Below, piece by piece: positions 3,264 to 63,356 of a DNA stretch of 64,000 nucleotides. Positions within the stretch are counted from its first letter, which is position 1; each line of letters opens with the position of its first letter. The notes beneath the pieces are model-generated. The model searched no databases. It was not told where the DNA came from and worked only from the letters and a program-made list of their open reading frames with translations. The DNA is from Gammaproteobacteria bacterium (GTDB lineage: Bacteria > Pseudomonadota > Gammaproteobacteria > SZUA-152), in the NCBI GenBank assembly GCA_032250735.1, contig JAVVEP010000009.1, forward strand, positions 32,334 to 96,333, given 5' to 3'. Made by a program: the position numbers and the translations under genes.

Positions 3264-3525
3264 GGGGAGACGCTGATTACCCAGAGATGGCCAGCCCTCC
3301 AATAAACCCTATAAAAATAGGGAAATTTGGCCCGTATTGACCCACAATTTCGTATCGTTTAAGGTGTCCCTGCTAATTTTTTGGCCAAACATCTATTTCT
3401 AACATTCTACTATTGGGAGAGTCGCTATGAGCCTTGCTATTACTTTCTTTGTTGTGCTTTTGGGTACCGCTTTTCTGGGCATGTTTACCTCTTAAGACAC
3501 GCCTCTGCCGCCAGGCAGATTGCAG

Positions 3526-3568
3526 AAAAAAAGGCTGAAACAGTAAAAACTGTTCCAGCCTTTTTTTT
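3526..3568. terminator. Bidirectional rho-independent terminator
   Basis: A7-GGCTGAAACAG...CTGTTCCAGCC-T8: a hairpin flanked by an A-run and a T-run, sitting between convergent genes. Confidence 0.65.
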
Positions 3569-3623: not shown

Positions 3624-4061
3624 TCACCGTGGCCTGAAATGCACCACCTCGCGGACGATCTCATCAAAGGGCAGCACATCAGAATCGGCAAAATGCTGAT
3701 CCCGGGCCTCCAGCACCGCAAACACATCCGGCCGGACCGGCGGATCACCCACATCGAGTTCCAGCAGTCGGCACAGCCCCAGCATTCCTCCGGCCTGCAC
3801 CTTCATTTCCTTGCCATGCGGCAGCACGGCCACCGGCCCCGCAGTATGCAGCGCGAATTGGGATTTTTGCCGCAGCAGCAACAGCCAGTCATTACAGCGC
3901 GCGGCATAGTGCGCGGAGGCACACATCACCACCTCCCGCTCGGCGATGTTCTTCCTTGATGCCTTTGAGCACTGTGTCTTTAAGGCCAGGATGGTTTTCT
4001 CGAAAACACAGGGGGCCGAGACCAGCGTATCGCGTACCGAGCGATATTCATTTTCATCCAT
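3624..4061 (-). CDS. Hypothetical 145-aa protein at the promoter-distal end of the hybrid-kinase operon (high-GC gene next to the low-GC kinase)
   Basis: Clean ORF ending just inside the terminator, 30 nt downstream of the kinase stop. No recognisable motifs. Confidence 0.4.
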   Translation of the reverse strand: MDENEYRSVRDTLVSAPCVFEKTILALKTQCSKASRKNIAEREVVMCASAHYAARCNDWLLLLRQKSQFALHTAGPVAVLPHGKEMKVQAGGMLGLCRLLELDVGDPPVRPDVFAVLEARDQHFADSDVLPFDEIVREVVHFRPR

Positions 4062-4091: not shown

Positions 4092-6788
4092 TCATTGCGG
4101 CAGGCCATGGTCACCAATTCTTTCACGCAGATATCGGCTGACATCACGAAATTCATTTTCTATCGCAACAAACCGGTCGGCAATATCATCGGGCACTTTT
4201 CCCGCACGCACGGCATCCACGATATCTCGACACATGCCCGATAATGTTATGGCACCCAGGTTTGCACTACTGCCCTTTAATGAATGGGATACCGACTCAA
4301 TATCCGCCATATCCATTTTGGCCATCGCAGATCCAAGCTCTTTAATACGCTGCCGGGAATGTTCAATAAACAATTTTACCAGCTCGGTAAATTTATTCTC
4401 GTCCAGCAGTTCTTCCAGATCAGACAATACACCCATATCAAAATGTTGCTCGATTGCATCATGGGATAGTGAAGTAGCCTGGGGAAAGTTTTCTTCAGCC
4501 ACCGGAGTATCCGTTTCCAGATAACGCGAAAACACATCAATCACCGCATTGATCCGCATGGGCTTGACCAGAAAATCATCCATGCCTGACTCAAAACAGG
4601 CCTGGCGGTCCTGGTCGGATGCATTGGCCGTTAAGGCGATAATCGGGGTGCGTGACGAGCCATGGGTAAGCTCATAGACGCGAATCTTGCGTGTGGCCTC
4701 AAAGCCATCCATAACGGGCATCTGGCAATCCATTAACACCACATTGTAGTTATTGGCCTTGAACAGGGTGATCGCCTGCAGACCATCATTCGCGATATCC
4801 ACCATGAAACCCTGCTTCTGCAGGATGGACACGGTGACCTGCTGATTAACGGCATTGTCGTCGACCAACAGTACTGATATGCCTTTATGCGGAGGTACAA
4901 GCTGGTCAGCATTATTGGCGTGATGTGGAATAATTATTTCGTTACTGGCATGCATGCTGGAAAGCGCGGCAAGCAGTGGAGATTTCCGTATCGGCCGGGT
5001 GATGCTGGCGGAAAAATGGAAATGCTTGACCTTTTCGGCAAGGTCGCGTTCCGAAAGCCGGAAGATGCCAATCATGAATTTTGCAACAACGATACGTTTG
5101 CGCAGGCTGTAGATGTCAGTAACATTCAGTGATAGCAGTTTATCCACGTCCAGGATGGCCACATCAACTGAGGGAATATTTTTTCCAGCAACGATACCGG
5201 AAGGCGTAATAACATCACCGCCCCAATACTGGACAAGACTACCGATTGTTTTTTCCATCCCCCGGCTTTTGGTCAGAACAAATACCCTCAAGCCGGAAAA
5301 TATGCCCTTTTCACGGCGATTAGAGCGTCGCTCCGTGGCGGGCAAATTGGCCGTGAACCAGAAGGTGCTGCCTTTACCCTCTTCGGATTCAACACCAATT
5401 TCGCCACCAAACAGCTTCGTCATCTGCTCGCAGATGGCCAGGCCCAGCCCTGTCCCGCCGAATTTACGGGTGGTCGACTCATCGGCCTGCGTAAACGAAC
5501 CAAAGATTACTTTCTGCGCCGATTTGGGAATACCGATGCCGGTATCGATCACCGAAAACCTGAGCAGTCCAGAAACATCTGTCCCCTCATTATCCGCCCG
5601 TTTGAGCTCGACAATGATCTCGCCATCATGGGTGAACTTTATCGCATTGCTGATCAGGTTGTTCAGAATCTGTCGCAGGCGTGTCGGATCTCCCCGCACA
5701 TATTCAGGTACATCATTTTCGATACAGGCGGTAATTTCTATGCCCTTGTCCTGCACATTCTTGGCATAGAGCCCTACCACCTCTTCAAGAAGATGCCTGA
5801 TATCAAACTGAATGACTTCATAATCAATCTTGCCGGCCTCAATTTTAGAAAAATCGAGAACATCCTTAATAACAACCAATAGGGCCTCTGCGGAGTTATA
5901 CGCGGTATCAACAAAATATTTCTGTTCCGACACCAGCTTCGTTTCACGCAGCAGGTCCAGCATACCCAGTACACCTGTCATTGGCGTGCGTATCTCATGA
6001 CTCATATTTGCCAGAAAGGTGGATTTCGCCTTGGTGGCATCCTCTGCATTTTTATAGGCCAATGCCAATTCAGTGTTTTTCTGATTCAGCTCAAAGCTCT
6101 TATTCCTGACATTATTGATAACAAAGCGCGCGATAAGAATCCCGACGACCAGCACAATAATGCCGAGCGAAAACTGCATCAGTAAGATAAATCTAAAATC
6201 CTTCTGATTACTCTGAACGGCATCATCCGTGTATTGCTGCTGCAGGGTTGTCAACTCATCAAGTAGATCGAGCAAAAGCTTCTGCTTCTCCAGGCCATGA
6301 GTAATCGCTGCTGCGACGACATCCGCCGGAGCGTCCTGCATCAGCAGCTCTGCTGATCGCTGGTTGGCAGGCTGCGCCTCAGAGGCGACAATCGCCAGCC
6401 TTGCATGGATTTCCTTTTCCTTTTTATCCACACCAAGACTGACCAGCTCATCTCGCATGTTCCGGTACTCACCGGCATATGAATAAAACCGGAGTGACTC
6501 AGCATCTCGAACAAAGATGTCATCCGTCGCCAGCATGGTATAAATACTGATAGCCCTCTGACGAATGGCATCGCGCATACCGAACGCCAAAGCCACCTTC
6601 TTATTGTGGACTTCGACGATCTTTTCCATGTTGGTATTGAATTCTTTAAGCCGATAAAGACTGATCGCGGAAAGCACCAGCACCAGGACCAGCACCGCAC
6701 TAAACCCCATCTGTACCACATGCACCAGACGACGATGCTCATCCTGCTCGTGGTGAGACGCGATTATTGAGTTTTTCTGATGAACCAT
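4092..6788 (-). CDS. Hybrid sensor histidine kinase (periplasmic sensor, HisKA, HATPase, pseudo-REC, REC, Hpt), BarA/ArcB/TorS-like
   Basis: Two TM segments bracketing a periplasmic domain. H-box SHEIRTPMTGVLGML, N/G boxes (NLISNAIKFT, DTGIGI, GGTGLGLAI). REC VLLVDDNAVNQ...LMDCQMPVMDG. C-terminal Hpt HSLKGSSANLGA. The start is probably the ATG at 6788 (GAGAGA SD); the ORF is open to 6854. Confidence 0.85.
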   Translation of the reverse strand: MVHQKNSIIASHHEQDEHRRLVHVVQMGFSAVLVLVLVLSAISLYRLKEFNTNMEKIVEVHNKKVALAFGMRDAIRQRAISIYTMLATDDIFVRDAESLRFYSYAGEYRNMRDELVSLGVDKKEKEIHARLAIVASEAQPANQRSAELLMQDAPADVVAAAITHGLEKQKLLLDLLDELTTLQQQYTDDAVQSNQKDFRFILLMQFSLGIIVLVVGILIARFVINNVRNKSFELNQKNTELALAYKNAEDATKAKSTFLANMSHEIRTPMTGVLGMLDLLRETKLVSEQKYFVDTAYNSAEALLVVIKDVLDFSKIEAGKIDYEVIQFDIRHLLEEVVGLYAKNVQDKGIEITACIENDVPEYVRGDPTRLRQILNNLISNAIKFTHDGEIIVELKRADNEGTDVSGLLRFSVIDTGIGIPKSAQKVIFGSFTQADESTTRKFGGTGLGLAICEQMTKLFGGEIGVESEEGKGSTFWFTANLPATERRSNRREKGIFSGLRVFVLTKSRGMEKTIGSLVQYWGGDVITPSGIVAGKNIPSVDVAILDVDKLLSLNVTDIYSLRKRIVVAKFMIGIFRLSERDLAEKVKHFHFSASITRPIRKSPLLAALSSMHASNEIIIPHHANNADQLVPPHKGISVLLVDDNAVNQQVTVSILQKQGFMVDIANDGLQAITLFKANNYNVVLMDCQMPVMDGFEATRKIRVYELTHGSSRTPIIALTANASDQDRQACFESGMDDFLVKPMRINAVIDVFSRYLETDTPVAEENFPQATSLSHDAIEQHFDMGVLSDLEELLDENKFTELVKLFIEHSRQRIKELGSAMAKMDMADIESVSHSLKGSSANLGAITLSGMCRDIVDAVRAGKVPDDIADRFVAIENEFRDVSRYLRERIGDHGLPQ

Positions 6789-7076
6789 GTGTCTCTCAGT
6801 CGGTACAGCTAGCCCGGCCCTATAGGCTGGGGCCCGTCGGATTTTGGGAAGCAATCGCTAATCTATCAGATATTTCGCGCCAAGATCTTGCATACGCCAC
6901 GACAAGGCGTTATTAGTCTTGCATATCAATAGCTTATCAATTTTCCAGCATTCCCACTCCCTGATCGCTGTCGGCATTTATTGCCCGAAATGTGAAGTTT
7001 TCACCTTTCTTGCCGCTACTAGTCTGGAAGCAGGCTTCAGGCAAAAAATGACAATCGAAACAGGAATTTAGCGTAG

Positions 7077-8948
7077 ATGTCCGAGGTAACCGCAGTAGTT
7101 CAGGCACACACAACAGATGGCAGGCCGCAGCTTGCCGCCCTCATGCTGTTGGTCCTTGTGCTGTTTACAACAGCCTCACACGTCCATGCAGACGCAGCAA
7201 ATACCGCCGCACCGCATACACCGGTCAATGATGTGCGCGTACTGATCGATATATCCGGCAGTATGAAAACAAATGACCCGGCGAATTTGCGTCAACCGGC
7301 ACTCAATCTCTTCGTATCATTACTACCCAATGAGACACAGGCGGGTGTCTGGACCTTTGGACAATGGGTCAACATGCTCATTCCCCACGGTCCTGTCACG
7401 GCAGCGTGGAAGAACGATGCCAAGGCATCGGTACAGAAGATCAACTCAGCGGGACTTTTCACCAACATCGAGGATGCCATCAGACGATCCACATGGGACT
7501 GGCGAGACACACCCCCTACGTCGGGCTCGGAACGCAATCTTATCTTACTCACCGATGGACTGGTCGATATCGCACTCGATGAACAGGAAAATCGGGCATC
7601 GCGCCAGCGAATATTGCGGGAGCTCCTGCCCCTCCTGCAAAAAGCCGGCGTTACGATCCATGCGATTGCACTGTCCAATGAATCTGACCGGAATTTACTA
7701 GAACAGCTGACAACCGCGACCGGTGGCCGGTTTGAGGTCATTGAAACGGCAGAAAACCTGGAACGACTCTTTTTACGCCTGTTTGACAACGTGGCACAGG
7801 CAGACAGTCTTCCTTTAACCGATAACCGCGTAAAGGTAGACGACAGCATTAAGGAAATGACCTTTCTGGTGTTCCGGGGCGCGGCCGTAGAAGAAAGTAG
7901 CATCACCTCACCCGCAGGCGAAAAGTACGATATCAACAATAAACCACAAGATGTGACGTGGCATAAAGAATCGAATTACGACCTGGTGACAGTCAAAAAC
8001 CCTGCCGCTGGCTACTGGCAAATAAATACCAAAGAAGATCCTGACAACCGGGTGATGATTGTGACAGACCTCAAGTTGGTCAACACAAGATTGCCCGTCA
8101 CACTATCCGTCGGTGACAAACAGACACTCCACCTACACCTGGAAAATAGTGGCACCATGATTGATCAGCGCGATTTCCTGCACTTTGTCAAAGCGACACT
8201 TAACCAGGTCGCAATTGACACTGAAAACGAGGAAAAGAAGTGGAATTTAAAAATACTGGACAATGGAAAAGGCGTCGATAAAAAAGAAAAGGATGGTATT
8301 TATTCCATCGAGCTCAACGAGACCCTGATTGCCGGTGAACATGACATCGAGGTGGAGATCAACGGCACCACCTTCCGACGACAGTTCAGGAAACAGCTAA
8401 CTGTTTACGCTTACCCGGCAACAGCGAATATAGAACCCGTATCAAAAGAGGCATTCAGGGTAAGTGTATTGCCATACCAGACACTGATTGACACCGATGC
8501 AATGCAGGTAACGGCGGAACACAAGCTACCAAACGGTGAGATTAACAAGATAACGATCACACGGGTCAATCCGGCAGAATGGATGCAGGAGTTCACGACC
8601 AACGGAATTCCCGGCAAGCATGAAGTGACCATAGCGATATCCGGCTCCAGCAAGGATGGAAAACCACTGGAGGCAACACTCCCTCCACTCAGCATTGATA
8701 TCGATGGTGAGAAATCACCGCCTCCAGAAAGTAATAAGCCGGAAACTGAAGAACAGGTTGAGGGTATCGATAATAGCGTGACGAATACCGAAACAGAAGA
8801 AGAGCCCGTTAGCTGGGTGATGGTTTCTGTGAAAGTGGGACTATTTAACATTATTGTCATCGGAATTTTCTTTGCCGCCTACAAATATTCATCAAGCATT
8901 CGGAAAAAGCCTTTAAAGAAACAATCAGAGGAAGAGTCAGATGGCTAG
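7077..8948 (+). CDS. Secreted, C-terminally membrane-anchored von Willebrand factor A (VWA) domain protein
   Basis: N-terminal signal peptide (LLVLVLFTTASHVHA). MIDAS motif DISGSM followed by a VWA fold. Beta-rich middle region. C-terminal TM helix WVMVSVKVGLFNIIVIGIFFAAY followed by a KK-rich tail. Confidence 0.75.
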   Translation: MSEVTAVVQAHTTDGRPQLAALMLLVLVLFTTASHVHADAANTAAPHTPVNDVRVLIDISGSMKTNDPANLRQPALNLFVSLLPNETQAGVWTFGQWVNMLIPHGPVTAAWKNDAKASVQKINSAGLFTNIEDAIRRSTWDWRDTPPTSGSERNLILLTDGLVDIALDEQENRASRQRILRELLPLLQKAGVTIHAIALSNESDRNLLEQLTTATGGRFEVIETAENLERLFLRLFDNVAQADSLPLTDNRVKVDDSIKEMTFLVFRGAAVEESSITSPAGEKYDINNKPQDVTWHKESNYDLVTVKNPAAGYWQINTKEDPDNRVMIVTDLKLVNTRLPVTLSVGDKQTLHLHLENSGTMIDQRDFLHFVKATLNQVAIDTENEEKKWNLKILDNGKGVDKKEKDGIYSIELNETLIAGEHDIEVEINGTTFRRQFRKQLTVYAYPATANIEPVSKEAFRVSVLPYQTLIDTDAMQVTAEHKLPNGEINKITITRVNPAEWMQEFTTNGIPGKHEVTIAISGSSKDGKPLEATLPPLSIDIDGEKSPPPESNKPETEEQVEGIDNSVTNTETEEEPVSWVMVSVKVGLFNIIVIGIFFAAYKYSSSIRKKPLKKQSEEESDG

Positions 8949-9591
8949 CGCCGACCCCACTGCCGTGATCATACTTGGTGAGATTGTCGTATTGGAGACA
9001 ATCGCAATTATTGGCTTTGTCATCTTCTTTTTTGTGAGAAAGAAAAAAATAAAAGCACAACTCGGAAAAAGTAAAAGCGATTATCTCAAAAGTGTCAGCG
9101 ACAGGAAATCATCACTAAAGTCATCCTTCGAAGGGACACCGTACGCACAAATAAATAACATCGATCAGGTGGTCGATAATCTGGTTGAGCATGAAACAGC
9201 GTTTTTTCACTCCATTCTTGGAATTATCGAAAAAAATGACGGAACTGCCATTGGCAAAATAGACGACAATATTCATGCGCTAGTGAACCAATATACCCTG
9301 CTGATCAAGTCTGGCGATGCACTGGGCGCTGAAACCGAAGAGGAAAATCCCATTGTACCTGACATCGATAGCGCTATCGATGACTTATTGGCGGACGAAG
9401 CCGATGATGCCGAAGGCGACCCCGCATTTGATCTCAGCGAAGCAATTGTGGCGGATGATGAAATCGCCGAAATCCCCGATGAATTGCTGGCGGATGACAA
9501 TCAGGACGAGAGCGCCACAGCATCAGAGATCACCTCGGATGACCCAAGCGACCCCGAACAATCAAAATCGCCAACCGACAAGACCCACTAG
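8941..9591 (+). CDS. Small membrane protein with one N-terminal TM helix and a strongly acidic C-terminal tail
   Basis: An 8-nt overlap with the VWA gene suggests an operon. TM helix AVIILGEIVVLETIAIIGFVIFFFV. C-terminal D/E-rich repeats (DDLLADEADDAEGD...). Confidence 0.6.
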   Translation: MASADPTAVIILGEIVVLETIAIIGFVIFFFVRKKKIKAQLGKSKSDYLKSVSDRKSSLKSSFEGTPYAQINNIDQVVDNLVEHETAFFHSILGIIEKNDGTAIGKIDDNIHALVNQYTLLIKSGDALGAETEEENPIVPDIDSAIDDLLADEADDAEGDPAFDLSEAIVADDEIAEIPDELLADDNQDESATASEITSDDPSDPEQSKSPTDKTH

Positions 9592-9607
9592 ATCAAGGCA
9601 GTAAATA

Positions 9608-11248
9608 ATGAAAATCTGGAGCCTCAAAGGTAAAGACATACTGATCATTGATGATTTTCCTGGCATGCGCACAATGTTGAAGAACATGCTTGCCGTCTAC
9701 AATGCAAACAGTATAACCGATGCAGTCAATGGCGAAGAGGCAATAAAACTCATCTCTGAGAATCAGTATGACGTGATATTGTGTGACTACAATCTAGGGA
9801 ACGGTAAGGACGGACAGCAGGTGCTAGAGGAAGCGAAGGAAAGGGATCTTATCCCGTACTCCAGCATATACATCATGACGACGGCAGAAAATACCGCAGA
9901 GATGGTTATGGGTGCGGTGGAATACATCCCGGATGATTATCTGTCCAAGCCCTTCACCAAAGAGGTCCTTATAGCCAGGCTAAAGCGACTGGTTGAGAAA
10001 AAGGAAAATCTGAGAGAAATATCACAGGCGATACAGCAACGTGATTATCTGTCTGCCATCGATATCTGCGAAAAACTACTGGATAACAAACCAAAAAACC
10101 GGTATGAACTGCTTAAGACACAGGCGGAGTTGTATATAAAAGTAAAAGACTATGACAATGCGGAAGCCGTGGTTAACGCTGTTTTGCAAGAAAGGGAGAT
10201 ACCCTGGGCTTTGCTTTATCTTGGCCAGATACATTTCCACCGTGGAAAATATGATGAGGCGAGGTATATCTTCGAAGACCTATCAGCAGACAACCCTAAC
10301 TATCTGTTTGCACATGACTGGCTATCTATTGTCCATGAAAAGACCGGCGACCTGAAAAACTCGCAAGACGCTCTGATGAGGGCCATAGAAAAATCACCAA
10401 AGGCGATAAAGCGGCAGCAATCACTCGCGAGCATCGCCTTTAAGAATCAAGATCTGGATACCTCGGAAAAGGCCTACAAAAGAATAGTCAGAACAGGAAA
10501 ACATTCATGTTATTTTACCCCTGACGACTACTCAGGACTCGCCAGAGTATACATAAAAAAGGGCATGACCGCTGATGCCCTGAACACACTTAGCTCAATG
10601 AAAGAGTCATTCTGTCTCCCCAACTCAGATCTTAATCTCAAATATTATATACATGAGGCGGCCATACACAATGAAATGCTGAATAATGAAAAAACCGTAT
10701 CATCGCTGAATAAAATAATGGATATCTTCGAAGTGTCGCCAGGAGAAATGAACAGCAGCGATGCCATAGATATTGCGGAAATATGCTACGCCCACGGCAT
10801 GCATGATGCCGGGAATAAATTATCCTGTCATGCCATCAGGAACAACCATGATAATCAGGAGGCGATTGATGAAATCATCACGCGCCTGTCGGCATCTGGA
10901 TTGTCTATAGAAAACATTGACACGCTCATGGAAACGCGTGACGAAGTTGTCGAGCTGAATAACCGCGGCGTTAAACTCGCAACAAACGGAAACATTCAGG
11001 AGTCGATATCACTGTTCGTCAAGGCGGCGGCCGCCATGGCTGAAAATAAAGTGATAAATCTCAATGCCGCTCAGTCCCTGATAATGTTCATGAAACAGGC
11101 TGGCCCGACACATGCCCTGCTAAACGAAACCAAGAAATATCTGGACCGCGTATCATTCGATGGTAAACCCAGTGACAAATACAGGATGCTAACGAAACTC
11201 TATCGAGAACAGAAAAAATCTGCCGACAAACAGTCGAGCCAGAGCTAA
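9608..11248 (+). CDS. Response regulator with an N-terminal receiver domain and a C-terminal TPR-like repeat region
   Basis: REC motifs ILIIDDFPGM, phospho-acceptor region DVILCDYNLG, SKPF. A ~400-aa helical-repeat region follows, with no DNA-binding domain. Confidence 0.8.
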   Translation: MKIWSLKGKDILIIDDFPGMRTMLKNMLAVYNANSITDAVNGEEAIKLISENQYDVILCDYNLGNGKDGQQVLEEAKERDLIPYSSIYIMTTAENTAEMVMGAVEYIPDDYLSKPFTKEVLIARLKRLVEKKENLREISQAIQQRDYLSAIDICEKLLDNKPKNRYELLKTQAELYIKVKDYDNAEAVVNAVLQEREIPWALLYLGQIHFHRGKYDEARYIFEDLSADNPNYLFAHDWLSIVHEKTGDLKNSQDALMRAIEKSPKAIKRQQSLASIAFKNQDLDTSEKAYKRIVRTGKHSCYFTPDDYSGLARVYIKKGMTADALNTLSSMKESFCLPNSDLNLKYYIHEAAIHNEMLNNEKTVSSLNKIMDIFEVSPGEMNSSDAIDIAEICYAHGMHDAGNKLSCHAIRNNHDNQEAIDEIITRLSASGLSIENIDTLMETRDEVVELNNRGVKLATNGNIQESISLFVKAAAAMAENKVINLNAAQSLIMFMKQAGPTHALLNETKKYLDRVSFDGKPSDKYRMLTKLYREQKKSADKQSSQS

Positions 11249-11253
11249 TCGAA

Positions 11254-11946
11254 ATGCATAACACAAACGAGAGTATAGACTTTTCGACAGTGCTGGCCGG
11301 CTCCGTGCATGACATGAAAAATTCCCTGGCCATGTTGCTTGGTTCCATTTCAGAGATCACAAACCACTGCAATCCTCAATCATGTCCGATGTATGACACA
11401 TTCAATCGAATGCAGCATGAGGCCCAACGCGTAAATCGCGATCTGATTCTATTACTAACACTCTACAAGATGGACAAGGGGCAGTATTTTTTCAATATTG
11501 ACGAAGTCAATATGAATGAATTTCTTGAAGAGGTTATTATTGACTATAAAGACCTGTTACAGAATTACAATATAAAGATATCGCTTGAATGCGACCCTGA
11601 TTTGGTTGGATATCTTGACCGCAACCTTGTCTCCAGCATTATAAAAACCATTATTAGCAATGCCTATCAATACACAACAGACAGTATCGTAATCAATGTC
11701 ACCAGCGACGACGGCTATACGAAAATTTCGGTGATCGATAACGGATGCGGCTACCCGGAGCAAATGCTGATCGATGGAACGCCAGATTCAAATACGGTCA
11801 ATTTTGAAACCGGCAGCACAGGACTGGGGCTGTATTTCTCCTCACGCGTTGCAAATCTGCACAAAAGCAAGACGAGAAAAGGTTATATCCGAATCAGCAA
11901 TAAAACCAATCCACAGGGCGGCTGTTTTAGCATTTATCTCCCGTAA
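11254..11946 (+). CDS. Soluble histidine kinase (HisKA plus HATPase_c, no sensor or TM)
   Basis: H-box SVHDMKNSLAML, N-box ISNAYQYT, G1 DNGCGYP, G2 GSTGLGLYF. 6-nt spacing from the REC-TPR gene. Confidence 0.75.
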   Translation: MHNTNESIDFSTVLAGSVHDMKNSLAMLLGSISEITNHCNPQSCPMYDTFNRMQHEAQRVNRDLILLLTLYKMDKGQYFFNIDEVNMNEFLEEVIIDYKDLLQNYNIKISLECDPDLVGYLDRNLVSSIIKTIISNAYQYTTDSIVINVTSDDGYTKISVIDNGCGYPEQMLIDGTPDSNTVNFETGSTGLGLYFSSRVANLHKSKTRKGYIRISNKTNPQGGCFSIYLP

Positions 11947-12008
11947 TCGTTACACAAGCACATACAACACATGTTTTATCACCTTAATTAGAAGTAATCA
12001 TAAACACT

Positions 12009-14360
12009 ATGAATGATAAAAATCTGGACCTAAACACCGCCTCTACAACGCCTCTTATCATTACTGGCTTTGTAACAATGTTATTGATTATCGCCTTGAT
12101 TATCGGTTTCTGGCTTAAAAGTCTGGCTGACAACAAAGAGTCGTTAGAAGAAATGGCCTCTGAATCCATTGAGGTGCGCACGATATCCCGGCTTATCTTT
12201 TCAGTTCATCAACAGATCGTCACCCTTGGCGATCTCTCCGCTGCGCCATCATCAGAGGCGAAAGAGGATTCATTCAGACAATATTTAAATAACCGGGATA
12301 TCATGCATGGCCTACGCCAGGACATCTCCAACTCACCAATGGAAGACAAGGAACTTACAATATGGCATCATACCAATAGCCTATTGGAAAGCCTGGAAGA
12401 ATCCGAGAATCGGGCGATCACCCTGAAAAATAGCGGAGACCAGGATGCCGCATATAAATTATTGATCAATAATGTCTCTGATGAACAGCATCAATCCATC
12501 ACCCAACTACCCGGCTTACTGAATAAATTACTCACCACATCTCGTGATGAGATAACCAACATTATCGCGACGTCTGACAGGAAAAACAAAACAACTTATA
12601 TTCTTGTCATATTTCTCAGTTTCGCCGCCGTATCTCTCGGCATATTCACTATTTTCGTGGTAAAAAAGACCAGTTCCAGAGAGACTCAGTTAGTCGATCA
12701 AGGAAAACGCATCCAGCTTTTGTACGAGGCCACATCCAACTCAGGCCTTAGCCTGGATGACCGCATCACCGAAACATTGAAACTCGGCTGTCGTGTACTG
12801 GGTATGGAAATCGGTAAACTCGGCTGCCAGGATCCCGAAAACAATAAATCCACCTTCCTGAACACTATCGCACCACCTGAATTGCCCGCGAAAAGGGGAT
12901 TGGTACTTCCGCTTGATAAGACATTTTGCAATATCACCTTCTCTACCGATGGCCCAATTGCTATCCACCATGTAAGCACTTCATCCTATAAGGATCACCC
13001 CGCCGCCGAGTTTCTGGGTATGGAGGCCTACATTGGCACTACCATCTACGTGCACGACAAAAAATTTGGCACCGTCAATTTCTCGAATCGAAAACCCATG
13101 TCAAAATCCTTCACTCGGGCGGATATTGATTTTGTTAATCTGCTGGGTAAATGGATAAGCGTCACCATGGAGCAAATCATTATCCAGGAAGAGCTCCAAA
13201 AATCGAAAGAAGCGGCAGAATCGTCGAATCAGGCCAAAACCACATTCCTGGCGAATATGAGCCATGAAATCAGAACGCCGCTGACGGCCATCCTGGGTTA
13301 CTCAGAAATGCTTCTCGATGAGGGCCAATCACAGGAAGACATGGAACATGAAATAAAATCCATTATCGCCAGCGGTTCGCATTTACAAAAGATCATCAAT
13401 GATATCCTTGACTTGTCCAAGATCGAGGCCGGCCAGCTTATTATTGAAGATAAGATGATATCCCCCGTGACGTTTGCCAATGAATTGAGCACGATAATCG
13501 CCACACGCGCTCATGACAAGGGGCTCGCATTCAATATCGAATACCACTTTCCTCTGCCAAAATTTATCAATACCGACCCCACCAGGCTCAAGCAAATCCT
13601 CATCAACCTGTGCAGCAATGCCATAAAGTTCACCGACACGGGTCATGTTACCTTATCGCTAACGTACGTGGCTGACGTCAACCAACTGGAGATCACTGTT
13701 TCGGATTCCGGCATAGGCATCAGTGAAAAAGAGCAACTCAAATTATTCAAACCCTTTTCACAGGCAGACGAATCCACTACCCGCATCTACGGCGGAACAG
13801 GCCTGGGACTCTGTATCTCGAAGCAGCTGGCGACGCGATTGGGCGGCGATATCTCTATCAACAGCACCAAGGGTCAAGGCAGTCAATTCATCACCCTTAT
13901 TGATATTGGCATTGATGCAGATGACATCGAGTTTATCACTGATATCAACGCGGATGATCACACGCCGGACAACATCACGCTGGCCACTGTAGCGAAGCTA
14001 CAGGGGCACATTTTGCTGGCGGAAGATAACCTCGAGAACCAGGCGCTCATCTCAAAATACGTCACCAAACTGGGACCCACTGTCGATATTGCATCAAATG
14101 GTCAGGATGCCATCGATAAAATATTTACTCATCACTATGATTTGATCTTGATGGATATGCAAATGCCCGTCATGGATGGCCTGTCAGCAACGCGTCATCT
14201 ACGCGCAATCGGAAATACGACAGCCATTATCAGCCTGACGGCGAACGCCATGCTGGAAGACAGAAAGAAATGCCTTGAGGCTGGGGCAAATGACTATCTT
14301 TCCAAACCGATCGAGTTCAAGGAATTCTATTCCACATTGAAAAAATATCTAGCGAAATAG
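12009..14360 (+). CDS. Hybrid sensor histidine kinase (TM, GAF-like, HisKA, HATPase, C-terminal REC)
   Basis: TM helices near the N-terminus. H-box NMSHEIRTPLTAILGYSEML. N/G boxes (LINLCSNAIKFT, DSGIGI, GGTGLGLCIS). REC ILLAEDNLENQ...LMDMQMPVMDG. Confidence 0.85.
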   Translation: MNDKNLDLNTASTTPLIITGFVTMLLIIALIIGFWLKSLADNKESLEEMASESIEVRTISRLIFSVHQQIVTLGDLSAAPSSEAKEDSFRQYLNNRDIMHGLRQDISNSPMEDKELTIWHHTNSLLESLEESENRAITLKNSGDQDAAYKLLINNVSDEQHQSITQLPGLLNKLLTTSRDEITNIIATSDRKNKTTYILVIFLSFAAVSLGIFTIFVVKKTSSRETQLVDQGKRIQLLYEATSNSGLSLDDRITETLKLGCRVLGMEIGKLGCQDPENNKSTFLNTIAPPELPAKRGLVLPLDKTFCNITFSTDGPIAIHHVSTSSYKDHPAAEFLGMEAYIGTTIYVHDKKFGTVNFSNRKPMSKSFTRADIDFVNLLGKWISVTMEQIIIQEELQKSKEAAESSNQAKTTFLANMSHEIRTPLTAILGYSEMLLDEGQSQEDMEHEIKSIIASGSHLQKIINDILDLSKIEAGQLIIEDKMISPVTFANELSTIIATRAHDKGLAFNIEYHFPLPKFINTDPTRLKQILINLCSNAIKFTDTGHVTLSLTYVADVNQLEITVSDSGIGISEKEQLKLFKPFSQADESTTRIYGGTGLGLCISKQLATRLGGDISINSTKGQGSQFITLIDIGIDADDIEFITDINADDHTPDNITLATVAKLQGHILLAEDNLENQALISKYVTKLGPTVDIASNGQDAIDKIFTHHYDLILMDMQMPVMDGLSATRHLRAIGNTTAIISLTANAMLEDRKKCLEAGANDYLSKPIEFKEFYSTLKKYLAK

Positions 14361-55202: not shown

Positions 55203-55766
55203 TCAGCTTTCGCTTGCGCTGCGCGACAGGGCAATGGCGCGGCGATGCTGGCGAAAGATCAGCTTGTCGAACTGTGCCTGCACCAGTCCACCCTGAGGGT
55301 GCAACGCCACCGAAAAACCGGTCTCCGTCGTCGTGGACACACTCCCATACAGCACCAGGGCCTGCGGGAAACGGGTATCCAGAAACAGCCGCAGCCGCAG
55401 CAGATCGCCCGCACCCGGCACACTCGGGGGCCTTAGCTCGGTCAGCGACAAGGCGTGACTGGAGATCGTCACCACCGCGACCTCCGGTATCTTCGCCTGC
55501 TGATGCAGCAATTCGCCCAGCATGCCGAGGATGAGATCCAGTTTGGCATCCAGGTGGGAGGACTCGGTCAGGGCCTGGGGGGATTTCTCCAGATCGTGCG
55601 GGATTTCTTCGAGGACATTCAGCGCGTTCAGCAGACGTAAATTGGCACTGGCGGTTTGCGATTGGGTACGGTCAAGCGGCAGCGACGGGATTTTGCACCA
55701 GTCAACAGGCACCACTGCCTGAAACCTTATTCCATCCGAGAGCGCCTGGGTGTGATCGTCTGACAT
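55203..55766 (-). CDS. Hypothetical protein in the fliS-fleQ interval (flagellar-cluster accessory protein)
   Basis: ORF lying between fliT-like and fleQ genes. No recognisable motif. Confidence 0.45.
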   Translation of the reverse strand: MSDDHTQALSDGIRFQAVVPVDWCKIPSLPLDRTQSQTASANLRLLNALNVLEEIPHDLEKSPQALTESSHLDAKLDLILGMLGELLHQQAKIPEVAVVTISSHALSLTELRPPSVPGAGDLLRLRLFLDTRFPQALVLYGSVSTTTETGFSVALHPQGGLVQAQFDKLIFRQHRRAIALSRSASES

Positions 55767-55918
55767 GCGCTGAAGGGTAAACAGGCGGATTCGAAAACAC
55801 AAGTCTGCGCTACAGCAGTGAAAGCTAGTGCTTTGGGAGTGCGAAGTTGGGGCGGTGTCGCATCCACGTCTTTTTTGCACCACAGTAGATGCCGACGTGG
55901 CAGACGATGATGCAGTCG

Positions 55919-56293: not shown

Positions 56294-56716
56294 CTAGCGA
56301 GATGCCAAAACTTGATCGCCAATACCATCCCAGCCAGATTTTATTTCGGTTAACAACGAAACAACTTCATCAAGCAGAGCAACATTATTTTCCGCGTGCG
56401 CCTTCAAAAGACACACAGCCATATGCTCGTATAACGCATGAAGTTTTTTCGCCAGATCACCACCTTCTTCCATATTCAAAGAGCTATTCAGCCCATCCGT
56501 TATGATTGCAATAGCAATTTTTATATGCTCTCCCTTGGCGGAAATATTCCCATCTATCATGAATTGCTTGGCTTTCAAGGTTGAATCAATAGCCTTGGAA
56601 AGTAATTTTGCAATTAATTCATATGGAGTCGCCCCTAGCACTGAGGCATCTAACTGTACCGACTGATAGGCATTAACCGCCGTTTTCATACTTTCCATCC
56701 CAATCTCCATCAGCAA
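56294..56716 (-). CDS. fliS: Flagellar export chaperone FliS
   Basis: AYQSVQLDASVLGATPYELIAKLL conserved FliS N-terminus. Confidence 0.9.
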   Translation of the reverse strand: MLMEIGMESMKTAVNAYQSVQLDASVLGATPYELIAKLLSKAIDSTLKAKQFMIDGNISAKGEHIKIAIAIITDGLNSSLNMEEGGDLAKKLHALYEHMAVCLLKAHAENNVALLDEVVSLLTEIKSGWDGIGDQVLASR

Positions 56717-56789
56717 TTTATTTATAGTTTTTTTGCCTGATAATAGTAGTAATATTTATTCAACAAAGGAATGATCAAATTTTTCATCG

Positions 56790-58223
56790 CTATGAAGAAA
56801 GACCTAGACTGTCAAGTTGTTGTGACAAGGCGCTATTCGTTGAATTCAGGCTTGCCACCAATACATCAAGAGCAGTAAACCGCGCTCGCAATCGTTCCTC
56901 AGTTCTGGATAGCGCACCTTCAATAGACTCCTGTCGATCATCCAGTATGCTGATTCTGTCCTTAAAGGCATTGGTCCGAGCGTCAATACTGCCGTTATAG
57001 GCCAACATCTCTGACACGACAGTGTCGAGTCGTGTCGCATAACCATCGGCAGAAGAAAATAAATCTACAACATTGTTACTATTGGCCTGTATGGCAGCAT
57101 CCAGTTTCGTCTCATCCAGAGCCAACTTTCCACCAGCTTGAAAAGAAACGCCAACGCTTGAGAGAGTCGTGTATGAACCCGTTACTCCCGTCGGAATTTT
57201 GTTCAGCTCGGCACGGATACTCGACATAATTTGACGTGTCAAAGAATCACTTGCCAGGGCACCCGCTTCACCACCGCCAACGCCAGAATCTATTTGCGTC
57301 TTAATTTCTGCCTGCAGGCCATTATAGGCATCAACAAAAGCCTTGACTGCCTCCTTGGCTTTACCGGTATCTTGCGATACGGATAGTGTCACTGTGCTTC
57401 CTGCTGTCACTCCGGCCAATTCCAGCGTCACGCCTTCAATTACATCCGTTACCGTGTTTGAAGATTTAGTAATCGATATCCCATCAACTTTAAAGTTTGC
57501 ATCCTGGGCTATTGATGTTTGTGCAAGGTTTTGTGCCCCCGCAGGGTCATAATTCAGCAGGCTTGTTAAAGTTGCATCTCCAGAAACCACAATCTGCATG
57601 CTCTGATCTGCCCCACTGTTCGTTGAGCTCAGCACCAGGCGATAGGGGTTAGCCGCATCGCCATCGTTTACAATAGTTGCGGTTACTCCTCCATTGGCCG
57701 AGTTAATCGCATCGCGAATGCCTTCCAACGTATTATTGCTACTATCAATGACTACATCAAATGAAGGGTCCGCATTGGACGTGAACGTTGCGCCGGAAGT
57801 TGTGCCTAAATTGATGGTGAGTGTTGTGGATGTGCCGGCACCAATAGATGCGGTCGCATCAGCCTGCCCGGCCGCCACAAGTTTTTGTGATTTGGCGAGC
57901 TGTGTTAGATCTGTTATTGAATAATTACCCGGTACCGCGCCACTGGTTCCCGTCGCCTTAATGATGCTGGAGTCTGACGACGTGGCAGAACTAGCCTGAA
58001 AAGTCGTGCTCGTGACCAGGCCATCAAGTGCGGATTGAAATGACGAAAGGGAGCTTTTAATCGTGCCTAGTGCGGATATTTTGGCATCAAAACTGGTTTT
58101 CTGTGCGATAAGCCGATCGAGAGGGATCCTTTCAACCTGCATCAATTGAGTGACGAGACCAGAAAGGTTGAGACTTGAGCCAATGCCCTGAGAAGTGATC
58201 GTACCAAAACCAAACGTAGCCAT
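56790..58223 (-). CDS. fliD: Flagellar filament cap protein FliD
   Basis: N-terminal (ISGLV...FDAKISALG) and C-terminal (FTALDVLVASLNS) FliD domains. Confidence 0.88.
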   Translation of the reverse strand: MATFGFGTITSQGIGSSLNLSGLVTQLMQVERIPLDRLIAQKTSFDAKISALGTIKSSLSSFQSALDGLVTSTTFQASSATSSDSSIIKATGTSGAVPGNYSITDLTQLAKSQKLVAAGQADATASIGAGTSTTLTINLGTTSGATFTSNADPSFDVVIDSSNNTLEGIRDAINSANGGVTATIVNDGDAANPYRLVLSSTNSGADQSMQIVVSGDATLTSLLNYDPAGAQNLAQTSIAQDANFKVDGISITKSSNTVTDVIEGVTLELAGVTAGSTVTLSVSQDTGKAKEAVKAFVDAYNGLQAEIKTQIDSGVGGGEAGALASDSLTRQIMSSIRAELNKIPTGVTGSYTTLSSVGVSFQAGGKLALDETKLDAAIQANSNNVVDLFSSADGYATRLDTVVSEMLAYNGSIDARTNAFKDRISILDDRQESIEGALSRTEERLRARFTALDVLVASLNSTNSALSQQLDSLGLSS

Positions 58224-58240
58224 TATCAGATCCCCCTACT

Positions 58241-58288
58241 CAGAACTACAACCAGAACTACAACCAGAACTACAACCAGAACTACAAG
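58241..58288. repeat. 12-bp tandem repeat (cagaactacaac) x4 in the flaG-fliD intergenic region / fliD 5' leader
   Basis: Directly visible in the sequence. Lies 18 nt upstream of the fliD start on the coding strand. Confidence 0.7.
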
Positions 58289-58335
58289 TTATACATGACA
58301 CATAAGCAATATATGCATGTTACATGCCATTATAA

Positions 58336-58755
58336 CTATACCTTTTCCTCAAGCATGGTTCCGCGCTGGAACTCATCTAATGTGCGGGCAATAGCCACCA
58401 TCGCCTCCGATGGAAACTGCCGGATCAGTTCACCTGTTTCCTTATCCTCGATTCGAACAACATTAATATCGGTACCATTTACAACGGTAAATTTCAGGTC
58501 ACTAAATCGTGCCTGTAACGACACATTGGCCTGTGAGACAAGCTGATCCAGTTCCTTTGAAGTGGGTTGTGCGGAGGGGGAATTTTGCTGTGGAGTATCG
58601 CCGGTTGTCGGCTGGTCTGCTGAATGCACACCGACCTGCCTCATAGCCGGCAAAGCCTTGCCATTCACCGCTGGGCTGCTGCTTTCTGAGGCTACTGCCT
58701 CCTTTACCACAGGTGGCGACATTGTGCCCATCTGGGTCAGGTTAGAGATATTCAT
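58336..58755 (-). CDS. flaG: Flagellar protein FlaG
   Basis: C-terminal FlaG motif (LKFTVVNGTDINVVRIEDKETGELIRQFPSEAMV). Position downstream of flagellin. Confidence 0.85.
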   Translation of the reverse strand: MNISNLTQMGTMSPPVVKEAVASESSSPAVNGKALPAMRQVGVHSADQPTTGDTPQQNSPSAQPTSKELDQLVSQANVSLQARFSDLKFTVVNGTDINVVRIEDKETGELIRQFPSEAMVAIARTLDEFQRGTMLEEKV

Positions 58756-58844
58756 ACCGGATCTCCTACTTCTCCTGCTGCCATAGCCCAGCCATGTTTT
58801 ACCATGACCAGGCTATGTTACTGCAGAGTCCTACTTAGCTCTTA

Positions 58845-59543
58845 TTACCTTAAGAGGGCCAACACGTTTTGTGGAATCGAGTTGGCCTGAGCCACCATCG
58901 CCGTACCAGCCTGCATCAGGATTTGGCCACGTGCCAGGTTCGCTGTTTCCATTGCAAAATCCGTATCCATGATACGACTGCGTTCAGCCGATTTGGCCTC
59001 ACGCGATGCCTCAAACCGTTGGATGGTAAACTCGGCAACAGCCATTGTGGCACCATGCCCCGCACGAGTCGCCGCAGTGGCAGTTAGTGCAACTCCTGCA
59101 GCTGTCGCGGCTGCAGCACCATTTGACGCGGTCAGGCTAGCGACGGTAGAGGCGGTAGAACCAGTGATATTCGCCAGCTCTGTCACCAATGCTGTGTATT
59201 CCGTATTGATATTTGCAACCTGAGCTTGGCCGTTGGTACCTTGCGCCTGCACCGCCAGCTCATTCATGCGTTGCAAAATATCCGTTGCCACACCCAAGCC
59301 TGCATCTGAGTTCTGCGCGCTAGAGATTTTGTCAGCCTCGTTTCTCATCTGCACACTCAGCGAACGAATGTCAGACTGCAGCGTCATGCCGACAGCCAGA
59401 CCAGCAGCATCGTCACGCGCACTGTTTACACGCAGACCAGAAGACAAACGTTCTAGCGAGGTGGCCAGACCCAGAGAGTTTTTATTAAGGTTACGCTGGG
59501 CGTTTAAAGACATTAGATTGGTATTGATGATACTAGCAGCCAT
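58845..59543 (-). CDS. fliC: Flagellin (minimal, 232 aa; essentially D0/D1 only)
   Basis: Conserved N-terminus (IINTNLMSLNAQRNLN...LSSGLRVNSARDDAAG) and C-terminus (QILMQAGTAMVAQANSIPQNVLALLR). A sigma-28 promoter lies upstream. Confidence 0.9.
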   Translation of the reverse strand: MAASIINTNLMSLNAQRNLNKNSLGLATSLERLSSGLRVNSARDDAAGLAVGMTLQSDIRSLSVQMRNEADKISSAQNSDAGLGVATDILQRMNELAVQAQGTNGQAQVANINTEYTALVTELANITGSTASTVASLTASNGAAAATAAGVALTATAATRAGHGATMAVAEFTIQRFEASREAKSAERSRIMDTDFAMETANLARGQILMQAGTAMVAQANSIPQNVLALLR

Positions 59544-59660
59544 TGTAGGTGCTCCTATTTATACCCCACTGGCGCGACTTATGCGGACCAGGATACGGGG
59601 TGCTTCATATTCAGCGGATATATCTCCTAAGTCTGGAAATATTTACCGCTCCCATACCCT

Positions 59661-59688
59661 ATTACGGCTCCCGCCAAAAAAGCTTTAA
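59661..59688 (-). promoter_or_regulatory. Sigma-28 (FliA) promoter for flagellin
   Basis: Minus-strand TAAAGCTT-N11-GCCGTAAT, matching TAAAGTTT-N11-GCCGATAA. About 115 nt upstream of the fliC ATG. Confidence 0.65.
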
Positions 59689-59831
59689 TCTATTTACGAA
59701 TAAATCTCCTGGACATTGGAAGAGAAGGGAAGAGAAGGGACGGTTAGAGACCCTTAGAAGTGGCATACAATTTGCTTAATATGCAAGCATTATATTTATA
59801 ATCTGTCAGGATAATTTAGGGGTGGGGTAAT

Positions 59832-62345: not shown

Positions 62346-62366
62346 CTTATTAATCTGCCATTGTTA

Positions 62367-63356
62367 CTATTGCTTTTCTTTGCGCAGCATGTGTTGGTCA
62401 AACAGGCTGTTTTTCTTCATGCAAGGCGCACCATCACGCATCAAATCCTTACGCATAGAATTATTGAAACGCTCAGTCGTTATGCCACGGTTGACAGAGT
62501 CAAGGAACGTTGCACTACTGTCAGGGTCTTTGGCAATAAGATATCGCAATGATACTCGTTCGTTGGATCCAATATTTGGCTCAGTTCCATGAATGGTACA
62601 CGCATGCCATAGCGCAACATTCCCAGCACTACCAGTAATGACCTGTTGTATGGCTTCAACGCTCTGCCCCGACTTGCCGTGCACATAACGCCAACGATTA
62701 CTTGTTTCGTCAGCCAGGTCTATATCATGCGGAAACCCATCAACGCCTAGCCGGAATGAACCCGGAAGTAAATTTAGAGGCGCGGCATTTTCAGACACAT
62801 CATGTAGATACACATAGAGCGTGATAAAGTCGATATCCCGGTCTGCAAAATCAATGACGTCCTGATGAAAATCAATACCGTAGAAATAGGTTACATCCCG
62901 ATATTCAGGGCGAACGTAAGGCCCAAGATTATTAACCGGATTTTCACGAATTCGATCGAGTATCCAACGAGGTATCCACTCCTCTGGGACGCCACATATT
63001 ATTTTTTTTCTGATGATGCTATAGCCATTCCCAAGCAAGTTTCTTAACAATGAAGTAATCTCATCAGTATTTTCTATTGCTTGAGCAAAATCATCGTAGT
63101 TATCCAGAAGATTGAATCCCGGCTTAGGATTTACTCCGTTAAATACCGGGCTGCGAAGAAACGATTCTTCGTCCATAAACATCGCTGGTGAAAATTGCTT
63201 CTCAGATCTTATTTTTGCAAGCAGATCGGCGCATGTATTTACATCGACAACACTTCCTAGATCGACATAACCCTGCTTGCCAAACTGTTCCAGATTTTTC
63301 TCGATTTTGGTCATGACACTTTTCTCTCTGCTTACCGTATCCGTCACGCGGGCCAT
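62367..63356 (-). CDS. PhyH-like Fe(II)/2-oxoglutarate-dependent dioxygenase family protein
   Basis: HQD facial-triad motif (FHQDVIDF) and distal His (WHACTIHG). Low-GC island beside maf. Confidence 0.55.
   Translation of the reverse strand: MARVTDTVSREKSVMTKIEKNLEQFGKQGYVDLGSVVDVNTCADLLAKIRSEKQFSPAMFMDEESFLRSPVFNGVNPKPGFNLLDNYDDFAQAIENTDEITSLLRNLLGNGYSIIRKKIICGVPEEWIPRWILDRIRENPVNNLGPYVRPEYRDVTYFYGIDFHQDVIDFADRDIDFITLYVYLHDVSENAAPLNLLPGSFRLGVDGFPHDIDLADETSNRWRYVHGKSGQSVEAIQQVITGSAGNVALWHACTIHGTEPNIGSNERVSLRYLIAKDPDSSATFLDSVNRGITTERFNNSMRKDLMRDGAPCMKKNSLFDQHMLRKEKQ

Follow-up and report, generated by a model that had tools for sequence, protein, structure and literature searches.

A candidate motility-associated operon joining a MotW-like VWA protein pair with a VieB-like REC-TPR regulator and its soluble kinase

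MotW, ZomB/MotV and VieB are recently found players in the motility of Vibrio and are still poorly understood. MotW (VC2232) has a signal peptide, three periplasmic Ig-like domains, a C-proximal transmembrane (TM) helix and a short lysine-rich tail (PMC8789113). In V. cholerae it is polar and dependent on HubP (PMC8789113; PMC12799141). Deletion of motW lowers both swimming speed and reversal frequency, with vieS, cheX and fliG point mutations acting as suppressors (PMC8789113; PMC12799141). VieB (VC1651) is a 64-kDa protein with a REC domain (phospho-acceptor D62), a TPR region and a C-terminal half without known homology, and it binds and inhibits VieS (PMC4352251). ZomB/MotV (VC1909) is a single-TM protein needed for CheY-dependent motor reversal (bioRxiv 10.1101/2021.07.06.451403; PMC8789113). 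Here we describe a locus in which genes for a protein like MotW, an adaptor like VieB and a kinase like VieS stand together behind a flagellar-type promoter-like motif. It occupies positions 4092-14360 of a 64,000-nucleotide (nt) stretch of DNA from Gammaproteobacteria bacterium, an uncultured metagenome-assembled genome (assembly GCA_032250735.1, contig JAVVEP010000009.1, positions 32,334-96,333 of the forward strand). This whole stretch is called the window, and all coordinates refer to it.

Two widespread modules of two genes each are joined in the locus, a feature that the preliminary description of this DNA missed along with the flagellar context, namely the sigma-28-type promoter motif and the flagellar gene cluster in the window. 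One module consists of a VWA protein and a small membrane partner with an acidic tail, the other of a REC-TPR response regulator and a soluble histidine kinase (Table 1). Open reading frames (ORFs) from the surroundings of 80 VWA and 83 REC-TPR loci were clustered; individual loci and proteins are given below by L and P numbers. In 59 of 74 loci the VWA gene has the acidic-tail gene as its immediate downstream neighbour, and in 69 of 76 metagenome loci the REC-TPR gene is followed in the same way by the gene of the 230-residue kinase. Other neighbours of either pair vary, and most VWA pairs stand alone among housekeeping genes (soxYZ, ahpC, rpoH, bepA). The four-gene order is kept throughout the window's clade and appears again in a distant clade (L082/L083/L095/P0305), in which REC-TPR is 43% and VWA 27-30% identical. 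At L078 and L015 the two modules are 5-7 kb apart on opposite strands. A neighbour-joining tree places the co-located cases in separate REC-TPR lineages, the window's clade and at least three others. Relatives of the VWA protein were found in at least 557 genomes in a scan of one genome per species, mostly from marine or sulfur-oxidising Gammaproteobacteria, and the pair of REC-TPR regulator and soluble kinase in at least 518 confirmed metagenome matches among the 600 pattern matches listed. We give about even odds (a probability of roughly 0.5) to the reading that the locus is a motility-associated, functionally coupled module.

The proposed association with motility draws on the promoter region. 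The consensus of sigma-28 (FliA) promoters is TAAAGTTT-N11-GCCGATAA. The motif upstream of the VWA gene agrees with it at 7/8 and 6/8 positions with the N11 spacing, ends 58 nt before the VWA start codon and is the sole such match in the 64-kb window. The flagellin promoter of the window, TAAAGCTT-N11-GCCGTAAT, has the same layout. When the divergent intergenic region was aligned across seven relatives, one invariant element was found, TGAAGTT-N12-GCCGCTA, in poorly conserved surroundings; inspection of this region by eye gave no GG-N10-GC match for a sigma-54 promoter. A sigma-28-like motif is present within 250 nt upstream of 23 of 75 VWA genes and of 3 of 997 other genes at the same loci (Fisher p ~1e-25, with counts that are not phylogenetically independent). 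Very distant lineages also have motifs of this class 60-100 nt ahead of their VWA genes, Thiodiazotropha for example in the canonical form TAAAG-N15-GCCGATAA. The motif is also found upstream of 13 of 63 stand-alone REC-TPR genes, and the flagellin gene of L153, used as a positive control, has it as well. From the consensus match and its conservation, both modules are predicted to belong to the FliA regulon, and for this reason they could merge in one operon.

The VWA protein was modelled with AlphaFold2 (AF2; mean predicted local distance difference test score, pLDDT, 81.7; predicted TM-score, pTM, 0.74). In the model a signal peptide and a VWA domain (residues 51-239) come first; towards the C-terminus a disordered linker leads to a TM helix (580-608), and the protein ends in the short, lysine-rich stretch IRKKPLKK on the cytoplasmic side. 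The middle region, which the preliminary description had singled out for structure prediction, forms three beta-sandwich (Ig-like) domains (243-336, 342-444 and 448-542). As modelled, the protein is a type-I inner-membrane protein with its VWA head and metal-ion-dependent adhesion site (MIDAS) in the periplasm. The MIDAS motif D58-I-S60-G-S62-M belongs to a complete site, whose five residues (D58, S60, S62, T129 and D160) are invariant among 55 homologues; N591 in the TM helix is near-invariant. Foldseek against the PDB gave generic VWA folds only (a bacterial VWA protein, anthrax toxin receptor, integrins and CLCA1), and a PDB sequence search with the family gave one marginal match. Residues 244-599 match positions 2-368 of TIGR03503, a hypothetical equivalog of 374 positions in NCBIfam, with 160.8 bits (E 4.6e-47), below the curated cut-off of 305.6 bits. 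Since all 55 homologues match it in the same way (best E-value 3.3e-53), the family is taken as a VWA-bearing sister group of TIGR03503, on which a literature search found no paper.

MotW corresponds in architecture to residues 243-623 of the window protein. Its TM helix ends near residue 396, and the construct 'motW 1-396' fits the 374-position TIGR03503 model; the termini of MotW (MLRILA... and ...PPKKGK) were deduced from primers. The two proteins have in common a link to motility, by phenotype for MotW and by the sigma-28-type promoter motif here, and a link to a VieS-type kinase, by genetic suppression for MotW and by adjacency here. The window protein differs in having an extra N-terminal VWA/MIDAS domain of about 190 residues and a partner gene downstream.

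The partner protein starts with a TM helix from about residue 8, in which Glu14 is near-invariant, and continues with a helical cytoplasmic region of about 100 residues and an acidic disordered tail carrying the motifs PDIDSAIDDLL, DPAFDLSE and EIAEIPDELL. No Pfam, NCBIfam or PDB family was found for it, and a PDB sequence search with the family returned nothing beyond helical bundles designed de novo and a marginal match related to MotB. A word-indexed protein search with the N-terminal profile gave 5 matches; an exhaustive HMMER search (E<=1e-3) was used instead and gave 844 representatives at 50% identity. Three loci (L003, L006 and L091) are without a separate partner gene. There the VWA protein is 772-819 residues long and bears an acidic tail after its own TM helix, which reads VPDVDQAIDELL, DPDLDLSADD and EIAEIPEDLI at the places of the three window motifs. 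This fusion has lost the helical domain of the partner and kept the tail motifs, with the REC-TPR gene directly downstream. Among 72 partner proteins, AEIPxDLL and DPA[FL]DL are present only in tails that precede a REC-TPR gene, and an EIAEIAEIP variant is seen in the distant L082 clade. Two further motif-bearing proteins come from the exhaustive search: the gene of P0305 is followed by REC-TPR and then kinase genes, and that of P0358 (L164), in what would be the same order, by a gene truncated at the contig end; the P0371 contig of 1.3 kb is too short to inform. The fusion and the conserved TM residues suggest that the VWA protein and the partner behave as one unit, with the tail as a conserved interface.

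Tail motifs of the partner resemble a known ligand of CheY. The N-terminal peptide of FliM (EIDALL) and the C-terminal peptide of CheZ bind the alpha4-beta5-alpha5 face of CheY. The acidic amphipathic motifs DDIDALL, EDIDALLNE and IDDLLADE of the tails can be likened to the FliM peptide, whose CheY-binding motif has been summarised (bioRxiv 10.1101/2021.07.06.451403). The pattern [IVL]D[ADES][LIVM]L occurs 45 times in the tails, against 3.6 +/- 1.8 in shuffles. Elsewhere in the family there is a coiled coil (EYxxMFxGG), and the acidic tails contain DDIDALL up to five times. Separately, the partners of L012, L013 and L010 (for example L012, 11547-13121) carry four to five near-identical DDIDALL(A/T)A repeats, about 30-50 residues apart and without a REC-TPR neighbour, a putative multivalent array of FliM-N-like motifs. 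ZomB/MotV, of about 254 residues, is also small and bitopic; its TM helix is N-proximal, its cytoplasmic part helical and its C-terminus lysine-containing, and it too has a motility context. It differs in the position of the TM helix (25-50), and a long acidic tail is undescribed for it. MotV ends with FGEKKKW, as deduced from primers, and the window partner with ...SPTDKTH; neither the window protein nor any of 154 family sequences has the KKKW end, and an identity of the partner with ZomB was rejected.

For the REC-TPR regulator, Pfam recognizes REC (11-125) and TPR (141-335) and nothing further C-terminal, while the AF2 model (pLDDT 92.1, pTM 0.86) extends the all-helical superhelix over residues 136-545. 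With Foldseek against the PDB, the superhelix is most like the TPR domain of OGT, among generic TPR folds. CheY is closest to the REC domain among PDB sequences (28% identity to E. coli CheY). Residues D15, D16, D60 and T92 align with CheY D12, D13, D57 and T87, and Y111, K114, R124 and R127 with CheY Y106, K109, K119 and K122. The alpha4-beta5 stretch is invariant among 53 family members, and alpha4 is the sole low-confidence stretch in the model. Of 90 family members, 82 have a CDYN[LF]G signature, which among 1905 ORFs was seen in no REC protein outside the family. Published mutagenesis primers for VieB encode FDIFIC-D62-YNFGKG, a peptide that carries this signature, with about 13 residues comparable (PMC4352251). 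VieB and the regulator further share REC, TPR and a C-terminal half without known homology, a similar size (~62 kDa here, 64 kDa in VieB), the phospho-acceptor (D60 here, D62 in VieB) and a hybrid kinase with Hpt as a neighbour. On this limited sequence evidence the regulator appears VieB-like. The VieSAB system differs in its partner VieA (REC-EAL-HTH), no EAL protein being encoded in the window locus, and vieSAB is without the 230-residue soluble kinase that nearly always follows the REC-TPR family. In another REC-TPR clade (L097, L099, L101 and L105; for example L099, ~6000-8000) the REC-TPR gene keeps its own sigma-28-like motif, and directly upstream of it are genes for a MoxR-type AAA+ ATPase and for a CoxE-like VWA protein of the cytoplasm. 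The adaptor thus has VWA neighbours of two unrelated kinds.

Three kinases are encoded at the locus. The soluble kinase consists of the dimerization/phosphotransfer and catalytic domains only, with H-box VHDMKNSL, an N-box, G1 DNGCG and G2 GSTGLG, and is without a sensor or TM helix; its conserved adjacency makes it the probable dedicated partner of REC-TPR. The minus-strand hybrid kinase has TM1, a periplasmic 4HB_MCP-like sensor, TM2, HisKA, HATPase_c, REC and Hpt, and probably starts at ATG 6788 instead of TTG 6854. Its cytoplasmic layout is like that of BarA or VieS. An orthologue is at the same position in L001, L007, L018, L085, L087, L088 and L164. The plus-strand hybrid kinase has TM1, a periplasmic 4HB-like sensor, TM2, GAF, HisKA, HATPase_c and REC but lacks Hpt; L007, L085, L087, L088 and L089 have it, and L001, L002 and L090 do not. 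The H, D and Hpt sites of the two hybrid kinases are intact. Both are missing from L002 and L090, and the hybrid kinases are accessory members of the locus. An inverted repeat of 42 nt with 83% complementarity (5631-5672 / 13593-13634) connects the two hybrid kinase genes. It is not a boundary repeat, because it lies in homologous HATPase-coding regions of oppositely oriented genes, and it suggests that the two kinases are paralogues.

In the mechanism that we propose, the locus would be a late-flagellar-class operon made of two motility-associated two-gene modules, VWA protein with partner and REC-TPR with soluble kinase. The first pair would form one transmembrane unit through TM helices with conserved polar residues and would expose short linear motifs to the cytoplasm. 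REC-TPR may dock on the tail, either with its CheY-like alpha4-beta5-alpha5 face on 'IDxLL' or with its TPR groove on acidic peptides. Phosphorylation of D60 by the soluble kinase or by a hybrid-kinase/Hpt relay may then change the binding partners of REC-TPR, in a manner like VieB/VieS. A Pfam search of the locus proteins found no DNA-binding or enzymatic output domain, so the output is expected to run through protein contacts, as control of flagellar behaviour or of kinases and not of transcription. The specific docking model is tentative and, as formulated, unlikely. The most detailed version, a widespread flagellar accessory system in which a periplasmic MotW-lineage MIDAS receptor and a partner tail mimicking the CheY-binding peptide of FliM recruit the REC-TPR adaptor and its kinase, is decidedly doubtful. 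If it were true, polar-flagellated Gammaproteobacteria would have a second, envelope-derived input to the control of the motor or polar organiser, parallel to chemotaxis, and the suppression of the motW deletion by vieS alleles in V. cholerae would be explained as a direct interaction. The locus gives comparative-genomic support for a direct MotW-Vie connection hinted at by genetics, and turns that hint into a testable physical model with the tail motifs, the polar TM residues, MIDAS and D60 as its elements.

Several observations weigh against a coupled module. Outside the window's clade about 55 of 72 VWA/TM pairs have no REC-TPR gene nearby, and most REC-TPR/kinase pairs have no VWA gene nearby; the modules are often apart and can therefore work apart. 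The strict 'IDxLL' motif is present in just 27 of 72 tails. TIGR03503 and MotW are putative equivalents, judged by the architecture described for MotW, and the VWA protein scores below the cut-off and carries a VWA domain in addition. The motW gene of V. cholerae is monocistronic, unlinked to vieSAB and genetically independent of other motility genes, and the authors thought that suppression by vieS might be indirect, through cyclic di-GMP (c-di-GMP) (PMC8789113). At the promoter, the -10 element shows a C in place of an A of the canonical GCCGATAA, the motif is seen at less than half of the VWA genes with the patterns used, shared ancestry inflates the motif statistics, and the predicted FliA dependence is drawn from a consensus match. 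These points lead to the main rival explanation, in which two mechanistically separate late-flagellar pairs are co-regulated and were merged through a common sigma-28 promoter without physical coupling. Such a merger fits modules that are each widespread alone with a sigma-28-like promoter of their own elsewhere, and the unlinked motW and vieB of V. cholerae (PMC8789113). It would not readily account for co-localisation that recurs in at least four separate REC-TPR lineages, for AEIPxDLL and DPAFDL tail motifs that track the presence of REC-TPR, for a fusion subclade that drops the helical domain and keeps exactly the tail motifs before REC-TPR, or for the suppression of the motW deletion by vieS alleles (PMC8789113), and we regard it as somewhat unlikely. 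A VieSAB-like circuit, with REC-TPR as a stoichiometric kinase inhibitor, Hpt feeding a regulator elsewhere (e.g. a c-di-GMP enzyme) and a structural role for the VWA pair, is very unlikely. The VieB-like architecture, size and CDYN[LF]G signature, the adjacent Hpt hybrid kinase, the missing output domain and the inhibition of VieS by bound VieB (PMC4352251) speak for it, but the locus has no VieA-like REC-EAL gene, REC-TPR is accompanied most constantly by the small soluble kinase and not by a hybrid kinase, and the hybrid kinases are missing from L002 and L090.

The preliminary description had suggested horizontal acquisition of the segment, with a VWA protein that may sense surfaces or host ligands and a multi-kinase relay; taken as a rival reading, this would be an island unrelated to flagella. 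Its base composition is indeed distinct. GC is 0.469 in 4092-14360 and 0.571 in the remaining window; per kb it is 0.43-0.52 over ~4-15 kb and 0.56-0.65 in the flanks. GC of the cluster genes is depressed at all three codon positions, with 0.49-0.55 at the third position against 0.62-0.83 in most other genes of the window. The dip is not unique, as a second low-GC block spans 56-64 kb. The complete MIDAS facing the periplasm would also suit a sensing role. However, L001, L007, L085, L088 and L090 have this cluster at the same site, with orf145 on one side and the aminotransferase/tatD genes on the other, and the closest relatives are 76-86% identical to the window in TatD, 67-75% in the aminotransferase, 43-55% in VWA and 55-68% in REC-TPR. 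Core-flank synteny is thus kept in relatives whose housekeeping proteins have diverged by 14-24%, and the GC dip is at the same place in L001 (0.32-0.39 against 0.54-0.61) and L007. The flanks are dinB on one side and the core genes tatD-holB-tmk-mltG-pabB-fabF downstream. No tRNA was found in window 1-22 kb, flanking direct repeats were at chance level only, and no integrase or transposase gene is at the locus. The sigma-28-type promoter motif is conserved, and a VWA protein anchored in the inner membrane, as modelled, would have no direct reach to external surfaces. Acquisition as a sensing island unrelated to flagella is highly improbable on this evidence, and a strain-level island is refuted. 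The segment is conserved in relatives, although with a GC unlike that of core genes. Near-core GC is seen for the module of the L003/L006 subclade; low GC therefore characterizes a single subclade rather than the gene families, and an old transfer or replacement could have taken place. The AT-rich segment is better read as an old, conserved operon than as a recent import.

The coordinates of the features are collected in Table 1. The ORF list, Pfam and NCBIfam confirmed the six ORFs and the domains named in the preliminary description, and the proposed coupling of an extracytoplasmic VWA protein to several kinases and a REC-TPR regulator is retained here in the form of a tightly spaced operon. 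The five plus-strand genes are packed like an operon, with an overlap of 8 nt between the VWA and partner genes and subsequent gaps of 16, 5 and 62 nt.

Table 1. Positions of the locus genes, the promoter-like motif and the flagellin reference in the window
Feature	Position	Strand	Basis or remark
Hybrid histidine kinase (Hpt)	4092-6854	-	Pfam; divergent from operon
Sigma-28 (FliA)-type promoter-like motif	6993-7018	+	TGAAGTTT-N11-GCCGCTAC
VWA inner-membrane protein (predicted), 623 residues	7077-8948	+	Pfam, NCBIfam, AF2 model
Acidic-tail bitopic partner, 216 residues	8941-9591	+	No family match; one TM helix
REC-TPR response regulator, 546 residues	9608-11248	+	Pfam, AF2 model
Soluble sensorless histidine kinase, 230 residues	11254-11946	+	Pfam HATPase_c
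Hybrid histidine kinase (GAF)	12009-14360	+	Pfam
Flagellin gene	58845-59543	-	Pfam Flagellin_N, Flagellin_C
Sigma-28-type promoter of the flagellin gene	59687-59661	-	In-genome promoter reference

Flagellar genes in the window include fliC, flaG, fliD, fliS and fleQ, together with genes for a PilZ protein and for members of the FliF family, the FliG family and the FliI-type ATPase family. The second AT-rich block (56294-64000, GC 0.42-0.54) contains fliS, fliD, flaG, the gene of a short flagellin of 232 residues, that of an MptE-like/TPR protein of 837 residues, possibly for flagellin modification of the Maf type, and a PhyH-family gene. Because of its flagellar genes, both AT-rich blocks of the window can be read as late-flagellar loci. 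An atypical PilZ (tPilZ) c-di-GMP receptor gene (55203-55883, minus strand) adjoins fleQ, which suggests c-di-GMP control of the flagellar cluster. At L153 (7332-11168) the REC-TPR and small kinase genes are ~0.7 kb from the flagellin gene, and a TAAAGTTTTTGTTCGCTGCCGCCGATA motif is upstream of flagellin.

On the other side of the locus, a tiny hydrophobic ORF (MSLAITFFVVLLGTAFLGMFTS; region 3427-3567) is followed by a near-perfect 19-nt hairpin between an A-run and a T-run (3526-3567), which resembles a bidirectional terminator separating dinB and orf145. The latter (3624-4061, minus strand, 145 residues) is without a Pfam family and is syntenic beside the cluster in L001 (53% identity), and its relatives are also near the VWA genes of L004, L053 and L067. 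A generic scan for sigma-70 promoters and terminators gave the same counts as in shuffled sequence. In a bulk Pfam scan of the window ORFs (15-63946, unmapped), three proteins had FHA domains, one was a Ser/Thr kinase of eukaryotic type, one had HEAT repeats and two were ATPases of the T2SSE family; these may belong to another cluster for signalling or secretion.

The preliminary description was right that this is not a textbook system, and no characterised locus matches it. BarA/GacS, TorS and RcsC share the HisKA, HATPase, REC and Hpt layout with the locus kinases. BarA/GacS was rejected, as the Hpt kinase scores 461.8 bits with the NCBIfam BarA equivalog NF008318 (cut-off 890) and neither a NarL-type regulator nor UvrY/GacA is at the locus. 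RcsC, TorS, LuxQ and ArcB also miss their equivalog cut-offs widely, and no TorT/TorR or RcsB/D partner is present. The Bat aerotolerance operon has VWA and TPR proteins in common with the locus and was rejected, the locus proteins having no BatA N-terminal domain, MoxR or DUF58. PADLOC models for anti-phage defence give weak generic REC matches only, and a defence role was rejected. So were the vWA-MoxR ternary conflict systems, which are cytoplasmic, have no histidine kinases and have different partners (PMC7159879). In the CheY-FliM interaction the motif is on the switch complex, whereas here it is on a membrane-anchored partner and REC is fused to a TPR superhelix of 400 residues. The comparison defines three uncharacterised families, namely the VWA sister group of TIGR03503, the acidic-tail partner, and REC-TPR with its soluble kinase. 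As a whole the system would belong to a known kind, in which a two-component relay and its membrane accessory proteins regulate motility; what is new is the combination and its predicted regulon membership.

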